Origin: a virus
UHGV virus genome: UHGV-0120089
Reading direction: 5' to 3' (one strand)
DNA length: 14,833 nt
Part shown: in pieces, positions 2,825 to 14,587 of the stretch
How the letters are laid out: every line of letters starts with the position of its first letter
How positions within the stretch are numbered: the stretch's first letter is position 1
Made by a program: the position numbers and the translations under genes
The notes under the pieces: model-generated
What the model saw: the letters and a program-made list of their open reading frames with translations, nothing else
Databases searched by the model: none
Told to the model about the DNA's origin: nothing

Positions 2825-3103
2825 TCATCGAGTGTGAGGCTGTATGATTCCATGGTTACCTCTGCTTTTTGAACGCATGTCACGTAACTTCTTAATGTGT
2901 TCTGCCGTTTCGATCTCTTCTGCTATCCGATCTGCATCAGCTTTATTCACAGGTTCAAAGTCATGATTAAAGCGGAACATGCTGGCGATACATGTTCTGC
3001 CTTTTCGGATGTAGTGAACTTTGTTGTGGGTAGAACGCAGGATTTTGCAGGGAGTGCCGTGGTGGTCGACGTACCAGGTGTTAGGAAAAATGATTCTGAA
3101 CAT
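2825..3103 (-). CDS. Hypothetical 92-aa early-left accessory protein
   Basis: ORF in operon orientation between excisionase and TraR-like genes; no family recognised. Confidence 0.5.
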   Translation of the reverse strand: MFRIIFPNTWYVDHHGTPCKILRSTHNKVHYIRKGRTCIASMFRFNHDFEPVNKADADRIAEEIETAEHIKKLRDMRSKSRGNHGIIQPHTR

Positions 3104-3150
3104 TTTTACACCTCAGTTGGACGATGTTGAAATTTGCTGCTTTGAGGCCA

Positions 3151-3369
3151 TCACAGTCCCCATTGTTTGTTCTTAAGTTCGATCTCCTCCTGGCAACTTG
3201 CACAAGTCCGACAACCCTGAACGGCCAGGCGTCTTCGTTCATCTATCGGATCGCCACACTCACAACAATGAGTGGCAGATATAGCCTGGTGGTTCAGGCG
3301 GCGCATTTTTATTGCTGTGTTGCGCTGTAATTCTTCAATTTCTGATGCTGAATCAATGATGTCTGCCAT
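3151..3369 (-). CDS. TraR/DksA-family C4 zinc-finger protein (phage TraR-like RNA polymerase-binding regulator)
   Basis: 72 aa with CxxC...(17)...CxxC (CCECGDPIDERRRLAVQGCRTCASCQ) and size typical of the TraR/DksA family. Confidence 0.8.
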   Translation of the reverse strand: MADIIDSASEIEELQRNTAIKMRRLNHQAISATHCCECGDPIDERRRLAVQGCRTCASCQEEIELKNKQWGL

Positions 3370-4106: not shown

Positions 4107-4783
4107 CGCCATTGCTCCCCAAATACAAAACCAATTTCAGCCAGTGCCTCGTCCATTTTTTCGATGAACTCCGGCACCATCTCGTCAAAACTCGCCATGT
4201 ACTTTTCATCCCGCTCAACCACGACATAATGCAGGCCTTCACGCTTCATACGCGGGTCATAGTTGGCAAAGTACCAGGCATCTTTTCGCGTCACCCACAT
4301 GCTGTACTGCACCTGGGCCATGTAAGCCGACTTTATGGCCTCGAAACCACCGAGCCGGAACTTCATGAAATCCCGGGAGGTAAACGGGCATTTCAGCTCA
4401 AGGCCATTGCCGTCACTGCATAAACCATCGGGAGAGCAGGCGGTGCGCATACTTTCGTCGCGATAGATGATCGGGGATTCAGTAACATTCACGCCGGAAG
4501 TGAATTTAAACAGGGTTCTGGCGTCGTTCTCGTACTGTTTTCCCCAGGCCAGCGCCTTAGCATTAACTTCCGGAGCCACACCGGTGCAAACCTCAGCCAG
4601 CAAGGTGTGGAAGTAGGACATTTTCATGTCAGGCCACTTCTTTCCTGAGCGGGGCTTTGCTATCACGTTGTGAACTTCTGAAGCGGTGATGACGCCGAGC
4701 CGTAATTTGTGCCATGCATCATCCCCCTGTTCGACAGCTCTCACGTCGATCCCGGTACGCTGCAGGATAATGTCCGGTGTCAT
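4103..4783 (-). CDS. exo: Lambda-type 5'-3' exonuclease Exo (Red-alpha, YqaJ fold)
   Basis: 226 aa; matches my memory of phage lambda Exo ([40 protein letters not shown]...) almost residue for residue. Start overlaps the bet stop (ATGA). Confidence 0.95.
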
Positions 4784-10109: not shown

Positions 10110-10917
10110 GTTAGCTGATTACAGGCCTCAACTGGAGGTCGTGGAGCATCGCGTGGCAGATACCGAAGATGGTTTCATGCGCGTTGCTAACGAGATTACC
10201 GACAGTCTGCTGATGGCTGATTTAACCGTCCGGCAGCTGAAGGTGATGCTCGCTATCATGCGCAAGACATACGGATTCAATAAGCCGATGGATCGACTCA
10301 CAAACACGCAGATAGCAGCCATGACAGGTATTCATCACACTCATGTTTGCGCTGCCAAGCGCCAGCTTATTGAGCGTAAATTCCTCATTGCTGATGGCGT
10401 GAAAATCGGAGTGAACAAGGTGGTTTCTCAGTGGATTAGCCAGGACAGCTTAACATTAGCTAAAACAGCTAATAAAACATTAGCCAAGTCGGCTAATGGG
10501 TATAAGCCAAGTCAGCTAAACACAAAAGACAATATACAAAAGACAATAAATACAAATACCCCCTTACCCCCTAACGGGGGCGGCGATGGGCAGGTTAAAC
10601 CTGAACGTCGCAAGGCAGAACGAATCGACTACGAATCCTTCCTGAACGCCTACAACACCGAAGTCGGTGACAGACTTCCACATGCTGTTGCAGTCAACGA
10701 GAAACGCAAACGCCGCCTGAAGAAAATCATCCCGCAACTGAAAACGCCAAACGTGGACGGTTTCAGAGCGTATGTCAGGGCGTTTGTGCATCAGGCCAAG
10801 CCGTTTTACTTCGGAGACAACGACACGGGCTGGACGGCCGATTTTGATTACCTGCTGAGGGAAGACTCGTTAACGGGAGTTCGGGAAGGGAAGTTTGCAG
10901 ACAGGGGGATTGCATGA
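10096..10917 (+). CDS. O: Replication initiator, lambda O-like (N-terminal iteron-binding domain) with internal ori
   Basis: 273 aa. [34 protein letters not shown] parallels lambda O (ADLTKRQFKVLLAILRKTYGWNKPMDRITDSQLS, from memory). Iterons and an AT-rich tract lie in the middle of the gene. Confidence 0.9.
10447..10560. repeat. Replication origin: three to four iterons (TTAGC(T/C)-N5-(A/G)GCTAA type, about 24-bp period) followed by an A/T-rich tract
   Basis: TTAGCTAAAACAGCTAA (10456-10472), TTAGCCAAGTCGGCTAA (10480-10496), TAAGCCAAGTCAGCTAA (10503-10519), then AAAAGACAATATACAAAAGACAATAAATACAAATA (10523-10558). Confidence 0.65.
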
Positions 10918-12290
10918 GACAGGATATCGAAGCGAGCGTTATCGGTGGCCTGCTGATTGGTGGATTAACGCCAACCGCCAGTGACGTTCTGGCAACGCTG
11001 GAGCCGGAAGCGTTTTCAATTCCGCTCTACCGGAAAGCCTTCGAGGTTATCCGCAAGCAGGCGCGAAACAGAAACCTAATCGACGCGCTGATGGTTGCCG
11101 AGGAGTGCGGAGAGGAGCATTTCACGTCAATCCTGATGACCAGCAAAAACTGCCCGAGTGCCGCAAACCTGAAGGGATATGCCGGAATGGTCGCGGATAA
11201 CTATCACCGCCGTCTGGTGCTGGAAATCATGGATGAAATGCGTGAACCAATCCAAAGCGGAACCATCGACGCATCGAGTCAGGCGATGGATGAACTTGTA
11301 AAGCGTCTTTCAGCCATCAGAAAGCCCCGTGACGAGGTTAAACCTGTACGGTTAGGGGAAATCATCACTGACTACACTGACACGCTTGACAGGCGTCTGA
11401 GGAACGGAGAAGAGTCAGATACCCTGAAGACCGGAATCGAAGAACTTGACGCCATCACCGGAGGGATGAACGCGGAAGACCTGGTGATTATCGCCGCTCG
11501 TCCTGGTATGGGGAAAACCGAACTGGCGCTGAAGATTGCCGAAGGCGTTGCAAGCCGCGTTATTCCTGGTTCTGACGTTCGGCGCGGAGTATTGATTTTC
11601 TCGATGGAAATGAGCGCATTGCAGATTGCAGAGCGAAGCATTGCCAACGCCGGGAGGATGTCGGTTAGCGTGCTGCGAAATCCTGCTTCGATGGATGACG
11701 AAGGCTGGGCGCGCGTTGCTAACGGCATGAGTCAGCTTGCAGATTTGGATGTATGGGTAGTCGATGCCTCGCGGTTATCGGTCGAAGAAATACGCTCAAT
11801 CGCAGAACGGCACAAACAGGAAAATCCAAACCTGTCACTCATCATGGTGGATTATCTTGGCCTGATTGAGAAGCCGAAAGCAGATCGCAACGACCTCGCA
11901 ATTGCTCACATCTCCGGAAGCCTGAAGGCGATGGCGAAAGACCTGAAAACGCCAGTTATCTCCCTAAGTCAGCTTTCGCGCGATGTTGAGAAGCGACCAA
12001 ACAAACGCCCGACAAACGCAGATTTGCGTGATTCAGGAAGCATTGAACAGGACGCAGACTCAATCATCATGCTCTATCGGGAAGCGGTATATGACGAGAA
12101 CAGTAGCGCCGCGCCATTTGCTGAAATCATTGTGACGAAAAACCGTTTTGGCTCGCTTGGTACGGTTTACCAGCGGTTCTGCAACGGACACTTTGTTGCA
12201 TGTGACCAGGATGAAGCCAGACAGATTTGCACAGCATCAAATGCACCTGCTGCGCGTGGCAGACGATATGCACAAGGGGCTGACGTATGA
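10914..12290 (+). CDS. Replicative DNA helicase, DnaB family (phage-encoded, P22 gene 12-like)
   Basis: 458 aa. Walker [10 protein letters not shown], Walker [10 protein letters not shown], and the N-terminal DnaB-like domain. Start overlaps the O stop (ATGA). Confidence 0.92.
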
Positions 12291-12315
12291 CCATCTACAT
12301 CACTGAGCTAATAAC

Positions 12316-12347
12316 AGGCCTGCTGGTAATCGCAGGCCTTTTTATTT
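12316..12347 (+). terminator. Rho-independent terminator downstream of the replication genes (tR2-like position)
   Basis: AGGCCTGC-TGGTAATC-GCAGGCCT followed by TTTTTATTT. Confidence 0.7.
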
Positions 12348-12375
12348 GGGGGAGAGTAATTGGAGGCTTTGAGAA

Positions 12376-12591
12376 ATGAGTACGATAGCTGTACTTGTCA
12401 GGGCTAATTTTCGTGAAGAGTTGGTGCGTTGGTATCGGTATCGTTCATCGTCCAGTTTGCCGCTTGATGAGTTGTATGAGCATTCACCTGCCGCACGACG
12501 CTATCCGCGTGACCGTGTTCTTCGACGGTTGTCCAAACTCAACAATGAGTTTCAGCGCAACAGAATTATTCGGAGTCTGGATTTAAAGTAA
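12376..12591 (+). CDS. Hypothetical 71-aa arginine-rich protein
   Basis: ATG with GGAGG upstream; immediately followed by the next ORF. No family recognised. Confidence 0.5.
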   Translation: MSTIAVLVRANFREELVRWYRYRSSSSLPLDELYEHSPAARRYPRDRVLRRLSKLNNEFQRNRIIRSLDLK

Positions 12592-12601
12592 AGGAGTGAG
12601 T

Positions 12602-12808
12602 ATGACAAATCAGGAGCAAATAGAGTTCATCCTTGAGCAGATCCGAAAAATGCGAGAAAAGAACCAACCAGACATGATGGAACTATGGAGACGACAGCAG
12701 GAAGAATGCCGCAAGCAGATTTTTGGTGAGAGAAAACAGGATGGCTGGAGCCTATATGGCTATGGCACCAGGCCAAATAAAAACGGATACAGCCTTTACA
12801 CATATTGA
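12602..12808 (+). CDS. Hypothetical 68-aa protein with Tyr/Gly-rich C-terminal repeat (GWSLYGYG...GYSLYTY)
   Basis: ATG at 12602 with SD AAGGAG 5 nt upstream (the track ORF starts at an upstream GTG). No family recognised. Confidence 0.5.
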   Translation: MTNQEQIEFILEQIRKMREKNQPDMMELWRRQQEECRKQIFGERKQDGWSLYGYGTRPNKNGYSLYTY

Positions 12809-12816
12809 GGAATTCC

Positions 12817-13227
12817 ATGAAACAGACAATTTTCCTCAGGAGTAAGCAACAACAGCAAGCTGCAATAAATGCCATCCTCGCAACACCACTCGATAAAGAC
12901 AAGCCAGTCACCATCCGCATTACTGACTACAAGCGCAACCTTGACCAGAACGCAAAATTTCACGCGATGCTGGCGGATATCGCACGTCAGGTTCAATGGT
13001 GCGATAAATGGTTAAAACCAGAACAATGGAAGGTTTTGTTGATTAGCGGTCATGCAGTGGCGACAAAGCAGGAAGCTGATGTTTTGCCCGGCCTTGAAGG
13101 TGAATACGTCAACATTCGCGAAAGCAGCGCACAGATGAGCGTGAAGCGCATGGCAAGCCTGATTGAGTACACGACAGCATGGGCTATTGGTCAGGGTGTC
13201 AGATTTACCGACAGGAGGTACGAATGA
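12817..13227 (+). CDS. ninB: NinB (Orf) recombination mediator
   Basis: From ATG 12817 (SD GAGGA): [32 protein letters not shown] parallels lambda NinB (IVVTIQERNRSLDQNRKLWACLGDVSRQVEW, from memory). Confidence 0.85.
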
Positions 13228-13406: not shown

Positions 13407-13573
13407 TTGACCCAAATCGAAGTTACGAACAAGAAAGCGTCGAGCGAGCTTTAACGTGCGCTAACTGCGGTCAGAAGCTGCATGTGCTGGAATTTCACGT
13501 GTGTGAGCACTGCTGCGCAGAAGTGATGAGCGATCCGAATAGCTCAATGTACGAGGAAGAAGACGATGAATGA
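13403..13573 (+). CDS. NinF-like zinc-ribbon protein (56 aa, GTG start)
   Basis: Hand translation: [56 protein letters not shown]; CxxC...CxxCC motif; GTGA overlap with the preceding stop. Below the ORF-track cutoff. Confidence 0.6.
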
Positions 13574-13820
13574 GTTAATAAATGGCAATGCCATCAAAAT
13601 GACAAGCATTGAAATCGCTGAGTTGGTGGGTAAGCGTCATGACAATGTGAAACGTACCATCGAAACGCTGGCTAAAAATGGTGTTATCCGGCTTCCTCAA
13701 ATTGAGGTTTCCGAAAGAATCAATAACTTAGGGTTCAATGTTCAGTACGAGCATTACGTCTTCGAAGGCGAACAAGGAAAGCGCGACAGCATTATTGTCG
13801 TTGAAGGAGGTGTTGCATGA
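13566..13820 (+). CDS. Short Rha-family (pRha-like) phage regulatory protein, N-terminal domain only
   Basis: 84 aa; MTSIEIAELVGKRHDNVKRTIETL resembles the conserved motif of the Phage_pRha domain. Overlaps the next gene by ATGA. Confidence 0.55.
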   Translation: MNELINGNAIKMTSIEIAELVGKRHDNVKRTIETLAKNGVIRLPQIEVSERINNLGFNVQYEHYVFEGEQGKRDSIIVVEGGVA

Positions 13821-14587
13821 ATGCCGTAATTATTGCCAACGCAGAAATCGTGCCGATTGAGTTTAATGGTGAGCGTGTTGTTACGTATCAAATGATTGCT
13901 GATATTCACGGGGTTCCAGTAACCACTATCAAAGATGGTTATGCGAGAAACGCGAAATATTTTATAGACGGAGAAGATACGTATCTTATTGATTTTACGC
14001 AACAGACGGCCTACCCGTCGATGAAGATTTCACCAAATGGCTTAAGGGTTTTCACAGAATCCGGCTATCTGATGCTGGTAAAGACACTACGTGATGAGAC
14101 AGCGTGGCGCGTACAGCGAGAGTTGGTGAGGAACTATTTCCGCAACAAAGTGAGCCAGCAATTACAACTGCCTGACTTCTCCAACCCGGCAGAGGCTGCC
14201 AGAGCATGGGCTAATGAGTATGAGCAGAAGGTGAAGTTGGAACAGCAGCTTGCTCTCGCAGCACCTAAAGTTGAGTTTGCCGATCGCGTTGGCGAGGCCA
14301 GTGGAATTTTGATTGGAAACTTTGCAAAGGTTGTTGGAATTGGTCCAAACAAACTGTTTGCGTGGATGCGCGATCACAAAATCCTTATTGCTTCAGGTTC
14401 CCGGCGCAATGTGCCAATGCAGGAATATATGGAGCGCGGCTATTTCACAGTGAAAGAAACAGCGGTCAACACAAATCACGGAATACAGATATCGTTCACC
14501 ACAAAAATCACCGGGCGTGGTCAACAGTGGCTGACCAGAAAGCTGCTCGATAACGGAATGCTGAAAGTAACAGGTGAGGCTGCTTAA
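13817..14587 (+). CDS. Phage antirepressor-type protein (KilA-N/ORF6N N-terminal domain plus KilAC C-terminal domain)
   Basis: 256 aa; domain architecture judged from the sequence (N-terminal YQMIADIHGVPVTTIKDGY...LRVFTESGYLML and C-terminal AEAARAWANEYEQKVKLEQQL...FAKVVGIGPNKLFAWMRDHKIL). Assigned from memory. Confidence 0.75.
   Translation: MNAVIIANAEIVPIEFNGERVVTYQMIADIHGVPVTTIKDGYARNAKYFIDGEDTYLIDFTQQTAYPSMKISPNGLRVFTESGYLMLVKTLRDETAWRVQRELVRNYFRNKVSQQLQLPDFSNPAEAARAWANEYEQKVKLEQQLALAAPKVEFADRVGEASGILIGNFAKVVGIGPNKLFAWMRDHKILIASGSRRNVPMQEYMERGYFTVKETAVNTNHGIQISFTTKITGRGQQWLTRKLLDNGMLKVTGEAA

Follow-up and report, generated by a model that had tools for sequence, protein, structure and literature searches.

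Two small accessory genes in the variable interval between tR2 and ninB of a Stx-phage-like lambdoid element

What is carried in the short interval between the replicative helicase gene and ninB in the virus genome UHGV-0120089, and does that interval correspond to the position of ren in phage lambda? The stretch of DNA analysed here, referred to as the window, is 14,833 nucleotides long, and just upstream of its ninB gene lie two small open reading frames (ORFs), ORF A and ORF B. A sequence-only reading had placed both of them at the ren position and had considered anti-exclusion or anti-defence functions plausible. The analysis points with high confidence to a different anatomy, that of a cargo slot bounded by ninB and by the terminator tR2, itself part of the ninA mini-gene, in the N-antiterminated early-right operon of a lambdoid element that resembles the Shiga toxin (Stx) phages. 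This anatomy is well supported, and ORF A and ORF B are real, separately mobile genes for accessory proteins that are probably dispensable. The slot, ninA and tR2 are already known from textbook lambda. What is added here is the corrected position of the ORFs, the independence and the position rules of the two genes, and the C-terminal motif of ORF B together with its fixed 8-nucleotide junction with ninB. Overall, this is an ordinary case: a slot of lambdoid phages that is known to be variable holds small genes that had gone unannotated.

The left border of the slot is a gene for a DnaB-type replicative helicase (10914-12290, + strand; PF03796, E=8.5e-79, also PF00772), and the right border is ninB, which encodes an Orf-family recombination mediator (12817-13227, + strand; PF05772, E=4.5e-54). 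Between them three tightly packed ORFs are found on the + strand, namely ninA, ORF A and ORF B. The first is a mini-gene of 30 codons for a hydrophobic single-helix peptide (12287-12379, + strand), identified by a match to phrog_5907 (E=5e-17) and by DNA identity with lambda. Its ATG overlaps the helicase stop codon in the sequence ATGA, and its own stop codon overlaps the start of ORF A in the same way. The intrinsic terminator tR2 (12316-12349, + strand), the sole terminator found by a terminator scan, comprises an 8-bp GC-rich stem with an 8-nucleotide loop (12316-12339) and then a T-run, with a folding energy of -16.8 kcal/mol and z = -2.3. It sits within the ninA coding frame and not in a spacer. 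The hairpin and T-run that the sequence-only reading had seen after the helicase gene are real, but they lie inside a third ORF that it had overlooked.

From the ninA ATG to just beyond the T-run, the DNA of the window is that of lambda ninA and tR2 with a single base difference. The similarity starts exactly at the ATGA whatever gene lies upstream, be it the helicase gene in the window, ren in lambda and PhiR12_5, or an 89-residue ORF in another locus (L013). The mini-gene has the features of lambda NinA (phrog_5907), being a hydrophobic small ORF that holds tR2 and is ATGA-coupled on both sides, and in lambda NinA itself is an ORF that has been named and whose translation start is recognised (PMC4824070, citing Kroger and Hobom 1982 and Liu et al. 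2013). The K-12 gene ylcH was considered as a homologue of ninA and is not one. Reporter work has demonstrated that termination at tR2 is suppressed by ribosomes nearby (PMC4824070). As tR2 lies inside a translated, ATGA-coupled ninA, how far transcription passes on into ORF A may thus be tuned by the translation of ninA.

Lambda has the order P, ren, ATGA, ninA (26 codons, containing tR2), ATGA and ninB. Nothing lies between ninA/tR2 and ninB in lambda or P22, whereas in the window ORF A and ORF B are inserted there. Since the window shares the lambda ninA/tR2 segment directly after the helicase gene, both ORFs lie downstream of tR2 and not at the position of ren. Ren resembles the two products in being a small non-essential protein of the same operon, but it is encoded upstream of tR2. 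Neither ORF has any similarity to Ren (hhalign probability 0.1-0.15%), and DUF7301, the family of ORF A, is found together with ren in 933W, BP-4795, PhiR12_5 and Bas106. Neither ren nor rex is present in the gene map of the window. The analogy with Ren is rejected on both position and sequence, and the placement in the sequence-only reading was wrong.

The contents of the slot were surveyed in 120 IMG/VR contigs with the exact tR2 sequence, with ninB within reach in 110 (L063-L182). The slot is empty (14-15 nucleotides) in 57 of these 110, which is the state in lambda and P22, and the remaining contigs carry one to five small genes in many combinations. The occupants include phrog_1165 peptides with two transmembrane segments, phrog_343, DUF7301 (15 contigs), ORF B (3 contigs), Lar and several further PHROGs. 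The commonest are the two-transmembrane protein of 54-64 residues (phrog_1165) and a protein of 92-94 residues (phrog_343); the latter is the family of 933W p31 and is related to PF26207, a member of which is encoded just upstream of ORF B in several loci. All occupants are listed as having unknown function, except Lar (restriction alleviation) and one labelled in PHROGs as a moron. The slot is hypervariable. The same interval also accepts foreign genes in the cryptic K-12 prophage DLP12, in which emrE, ybcK, ybcL and ybcM lie between ren and ninB, although this cargo consists of larger genes unrelated to ORF A or ORF B. The full DLP12 order (L062, 685-6922) is emrE, ylcJ, ybcK, ybcL, ybcM and ylcH, between renD and the ninB homologue ybcN.

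ORF A (12376-12591, + strand) encodes a strongly basic protein with 14 Arg among 71 residues, an isoelectric point of 11.1, a net charge of +7.6 and no Cys. It is a full-length member of the Pfam family DUF7301 (PF23975), with residues 1-64 aligned to profile positions 1-64 of 65 at 84.3 bits (E=6.5e-24), against a curated gathering threshold of 27 bits, and it also matches phrog_1785 (E=4e-31). The sequence YPRDRVLRRL (residues 43-52; codons at 12502-12531, + strand) is invariant or nearly so in 18 full-length DUF7301 members and is present in ORF A, which shows no difference from its family. Synonymous differences occur within the codons of this core, and therefore the constraint acts on the protein. 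With a ratio of nonsynonymous to synonymous substitution rates (dN/dS) of about 0.4 between allele types, and with frame and length preserved, ORF A is under purifying selection. Its Shine-Dalgarno sequence, GGAGG (12362-12366, + strand), lies inside ninA, 9 nucleotides before the ATG. In short, ORF A belongs, as an ordinary member, to a family already on record that has no assigned function.

The DUF7301 family has an intragenic mosaic structure, in which either of two N-terminal types is found combined with either of two C-terminal types across the YPRDRVLRRL core, and several relatives are frameshifted (P0056 and P0061-P0063). A chimera was also observed (P0045, alignment A5), in which a Cro/YdaS-like N-terminus precedes the C-terminal half of DUF7301. 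The basic charge is retained in all three divergent forms of the family, with isoelectric points of 10.6-11.4. The AlphaFold2 model of ORF A is a helical hairpin with helices at residues 3-25 and 44-70 and a mean predicted local distance difference test score (pLDDT) of 77.7, for which Foldseek found nothing significant in the PDB (best E=6) or BFVD (best E=2.3). DUF7301 was counted in 183 phage records, nearly all from Stx-converting or related Escherichia coli phages, and in 543 of 5426 complete E. coli genomes (about 10%); source names additionally list E. albertii, Salmonella and Shigella. A divergent member (PF23975, E=3e-15) directly follows the primase-helicase gene in a Cronobacter ENT47670-like phage, and the conservation of the slot genes spans E. 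coli to Cronobacter-type phages. The library of literature searched makes no mention of DUF7301, PF23975 or these PHROG identifiers.

The annotation of DUF7301 in reference genomes is confused with that of its neighbour. In 933W (NC_000924, L061, 2998-3357) and BP-4795 (L002, 2538-2963), the RefSeq coding sequence for a 'Lar-like restriction alleviation protein' has an N-terminal extension that runs, in a different frame, over the DUF7301 ORF, which is itself unannotated in both records. The actual Lar ORF has 78 residues, as in PhiR12_5 (L003:2727-2963). Certain DUF7301 fragments are labelled by NCBI as 'Lar family ..., partial', which is annotation spill-over.

ORF B (12602-12808, + strand) encodes 68 residues that are predicted to form a two-helix hairpin (residues 3-41), followed by a disordered tail rich in Tyr and Gly. 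The sequence AAGGAG (12591-12596, + strand) stands 5 nucleotides before its ATG at 12602, and a GTG at 12596 is likewise in frame. Coordinates and composition bear out the sequence-only reading in its description of two tightly packed small ORFs, of 71 residues with much Arg and of 68 residues with a repeated aromatic tail, and the good ribosome-binding sites that it claimed are there. The tail (residues 46-68; 12737-12805, + strand) reads GWSLYGYG...GYSLYTY and contains two copies of G[WY]SLY, with five Tyr, one Trp and four Gly. Its last four residues, LYTY (12794-12805, + strand), are conserved at the extreme C-terminus in the family, with L65, Y66 and Y68 present in at least 90% of members (alignment A7).

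The whole of ORF B (residues 1-68 of 68) matches phrog_18758 (E=5.5e-41), a PHROG listed with unknown function, of which it is a member. It has the hairpin motif of its family, EQ..FI.E.C...R..N.PDL.ELW..QQE, together with the C-terminal LY[ST]Y. Remote relatives at 42-56% identity (59-69 residues) keep the N-terminal hairpin, and most also keep LY[ST]Y; the tail motif is restricted to the ORF B family among all + strand ORFs of the loci. In divergent pairs dN/dS is 0.06-0.26 for the protein and 0.08-0.33 for the tail alone, with synonymous sites near saturation, and ORF B is under purifying selection. The AlphaFold2 model has helices at residues 3-21 and 25-41, and the tail has a pLDDT below 50. 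The family is small, with 19 clusters at 90% identity and only 12 matches among 1.84 billion representatives. It occurs in one phage record (Bas106) and in 37 of 5426 complete E. coli genomes, and no relatives were found in scans of species-representative genomes.

Profile and structure-prediction searches, which had been proposed in the sequence-only reading, matched both proteins to families and gave no sequence or fold match from which a function could be assigned. The statement that neither protein is recognisable thus fails for ORF A, which belongs to a named Pfam family, and stands for ORF B insofar as it matches only a PHROG of unknown function; no function is available for either. Neither ORF matches NCBIfam, neither gave a hit below E=0.3 in profile searches of PDB sequences, and the best Foldseek match of the ORF B model in BFVD is insignificant (E=8.5). 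No homology was found between ORF A and ORF B. PADLOC, which covers defence systems, gave no match, and a role as a component of such a system was rejected on the PADLOC and NCBIfam results.

Several identities for the ORF B tail were considered and rejected. The consensus for peptides that bind the beta clamp is of the QL[SD]LF type, with Gln at position 1 and, at positions 4-5, Leu and an aromatic residue. In the tail the corresponding sequence is x-x-[SN]-L-Y, with G/S/T/N and Y/H/C/S at the first two positions and never Q-L. A signal of the YxF type, as in outer membrane proteins, was discarded because ORF B has no signal peptide, and the protein is therefore cytoplasmic. No maturase gene lies nearby, so ORF B is not a precursor of a ribosomally synthesised and post-translationally modified peptide. 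Nor is the tail an artefact of the ribosome-binding site of ninB, given that the motif varies synonymously and is retained before a TAA stop in loci without an adjacent ninB (L005, L041). The region likewise gave nothing in an Rfam search at E<=1 except a chance snoRNA-like match, and a small RNA or other RNA element was rejected.

The junction of ORF B with ninB is fixed. The stop codon and the 8 nucleotides before the ninB ATG (TGA GGAATTCC; 12806-12816, + strand) are arranged such that the Shine-Dalgarno sequence of ninB (TGAGG) includes the stop codon. Where ORF B is full-length, the gap from stop to ATG is almost always exactly 8 nucleotides, also in relatives that share 48-56% identity. 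Of the 56 fetched loci with a relative of ORF B, 50 have ninB or a weak NinB match as the gene that follows, and the adjacency holds even though the ninB alleles beside ORF B relatives may be only 31-39% identical to that of the window. Exceptions include an intervening 69-residue ORF (L005) and an intervening Lar gene (L043). In the former locus (4208-4240), ORF B ends in TAA and is followed by a terminator-like hairpin with a T-run, and then by the extra ORF before ninB.

ORF A follows a position rule of its own, in that DUF7301 comes early, soon after the replication module, and lies directly after ninA through ATGA. Outside the Stx-like phages of E. coli, the upstream neighbour of ORF B is not DUF7301 and is often a PF26207-family gene, and 182 of the 183 phage records with DUF7301 are without ORF B. 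Because ORF B follows non-DUF7301 genes in several loci and DUF7301 mostly occurs without ORF B, the two genes are independent modules.

With the small nin genes of lambda and P22 (ninA, ninD, ninE, ninF, ninH and others), both ORFs share a common operon, delayed-early N-dependent expression, ATGA packing and small size, and likewise dispensability and, for the most part, a lack of known function. DUF7301 and ORF B are nevertheless extra cargo, with no homology to any named nin protein, and none to a characterised nin protein of housekeeping function. Lar/Ral proteins (PF14354) are also small, and in 933W-type phages they too are encoded after DUF7301 and before ninB. Lar, however, is a Cys4 zinc-ribbon, whereas ORF B is helical, has one Cys and does not match PF14354. 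Neither ORF A nor ORF B qualifies for that family, which is defined by a CxxC...CxxC zinc-ribbon and its profile, since neither matches at E<=1. Lar and ORF B also occur together in one locus (L043).

How might the two proteins act? No + strand promoter is predicted in the region of ORF A and ORF B, which are transcribed only within the pR operon, and therefore transcription has to continue past tR2 to reach them, presumably by antitermination through N. The N gene is present in the window, and translation of ORF A is ATGA-coupled to that of ninA. Both proteins would be delayed-early products, made only when N-modified polymerase passes tR2. Early in lytic growth, and next to the replication functions, ORF A may bind either nucleic acid or a protein partner that is acidic; this proposal is doubtful, and is made because the positive charge and the YPRDRVLRRL core are kept while the rest of the protein diverges. 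ORF B could be a small adaptor, whose two-helix hairpin bears a flexible tail and whose C-terminal LY[ST]Y peptide docks on a partner. The partner would most likely be found in the context of NinB recombination and replication restart, because ORF B and NinB are produced together and the gene for ORF B nearly always directly precedes ninB. A role for the tail is favoured by its conservation, in that it is predicted to be disordered yet has a dN/dS of 0.08-0.33, and its C-terminal motif is kept at 42-56% identity. The adaptor mode is held with as little assurance as that for ORF A. Both genes would be dispensable, because the whole nin region of lambda can be deleted without loss of plaque formation (PMC10695390). 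Taken as a whole, a tR2-ninB cargo slot with two accessory genes and these modes of action is the best explanation at hand, and it is put forward tentatively.

A number of observations weigh against that explanation. In one locus (L052) a relative of ORF B is followed by an Ead/Ea22-like gene in place of ninB. ORF B variants and ninB alleles are shuffled, with an ORF B of 42% identity beside a ninB of 86% in L058 and the values 82% and 37% in L009, and this shuffling gives, as far as the alleles can tell, no sign of co-evolution. The identities of ORF B and NinB do correlate (Spearman 0.70), but this is explained by linkage, and clear shuffled pairs exist. Gene order in the lambdoid nin region is conserved throughout, so that ninB may stand next to ORF B through module order alone. 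Confidence in the DUF7301 model is no more than moderate, with a predicted template modelling score of 0.43, and no functional homologue was found for either protein by sequence (Pfam, NCBIfam, PADLOC and PDB sequences) or by fold (best Foldseek E = 2.3-8.5). Finally, tailless 51-residue and frameshifted ORF B alleles are common in prophages, so that loss of the tail is tolerated there. In the 51-residue alleles (L013-L019, L045-L049 and L053, at about 3001-3156), a phrog_1165 two-transmembrane gene supplies the 3' end (KMAWRFVS*), fused to ORF B at about codon 51, and a different ninB allele follows. These alleles are recombination scars within the slot and not point nonsense mutations.

The main rival explanation is that ORF A, ORF B or both are anti-defence or anti-exclusion effectors that block host or prophage immunity, the slot being a counter-defence locus. 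Such a role is possible, if somewhat doubtful. One supporting observation is the Lar-family gene (PF14354, E=1.8e-10) that lies between DUF7301 and ninB in PhiR12_5, BP-4795 and 933W, to which the Lar gene between ORF B and ninB in L043 can be added. The hypervariability of the slot, empty in 57 of 110 contigs and otherwise filled with one to five small genes, is a pattern typical of counter-defence loci. Lacking promoters of their own, the genes would be expressed in lytic growth alone, and the nin region is dispensable in the laboratory (PMC10695390). However, neither ORF is similar to Ren, Lar or any other characterised protein, and ORF A is strongly basic, unlike the acidic anti-restriction proteins that mimic DNA. 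DUF7301 and ORF B occur together with Ren and with Lar, and therefore substitute for neither, and DefenseFinder applied to related phages of enterohaemorrhagic E. coli gave only methyltransferases, Ral and Gam (PMC12502783).

It is unlikely that the two proteins are instead host-takeover or toxic proteins in the manner of Kil, unrelated to NinB or to defence, that would disturb a host process (cell division, transcription termination or the nucleoid, for example) in favour of lytic growth. Both are small delayed-early proteins from a region rich in such genes, and the window itself carries kil and sieB. The high positive charge of ORF A, and its place directly after tR2 in a nin region that contains terminators, would also fit, but no homology or fold match indicates any particular target. 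That the ORFs are non-functional, as chance frames or decaying remnants kept as recombination linkers or regulatory DNA, is essentially excluded: tailless and frameshifted ORF B alleles are frequent, and ORF A is an intragenic mosaic with a fairly high dN/dS of about 0.4 and several frameshifted relatives, but ORF B has a dN/dS of 0.06-0.26 at saturated synonymous sites and keeps frame, length and C-terminal motif down to 42% identity, the DUF7301 core is conserved as protein while its codons vary, and both ORFs have strong ribosome-binding sites or ATGA coupling and no Rfam match.

The cargo-slot explanation can be taken further, though with a good deal of improbability. ORF B could represent an undescribed class of small phage adaptor, a helical hairpin that presents its C-terminal LY[ST]Y peptide, is co-translated with NinB and tethers or blocks a host factor for DNA transactions or immunity (a recombination mediator, replisome hub or defence sensor, for example), and DUF7301 could be a basic factor that binds nucleic acid and acts where the nin operon starts. 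Most of the Stx-converting phages sampled have DUF7301, as do about 10% of complete E. coli genomes, yet the family is without an assigned function and is annotated incorrectly even in reference genomes, 933W among them. Should DUF7301 act in replication, recombination or counter-defence, this would bear on the propagation of Stx phages. ORF B is rare but offers a testable feature, the conserved C-terminal peptide and the fixed coupling to ninB, and it is present in the model phage Bas106 CurroJimenez.

The surrounding gene map runs from int, exo, bet, gam, kil, sieB, N, cI, cII and O through the helicase and nin genes to an antirepressor, and the early region of the window is Stx-phage-like. 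On the - strand, a 97-residue ORF (12627-12920) overlaps ORF B and the start of ninB, and a weak promoter-like site is found at 12592-12565; both were treated as chance, given the coding signal of the + strand. Downstream of ninB, an 84-residue ORF (13566-13820) matches the Rha regulatory domain at its first 27 positions only and looks like a fragment, and it overlaps the start of a 256-residue ORF6N and KilAC antirepressor gene (13817-14587).

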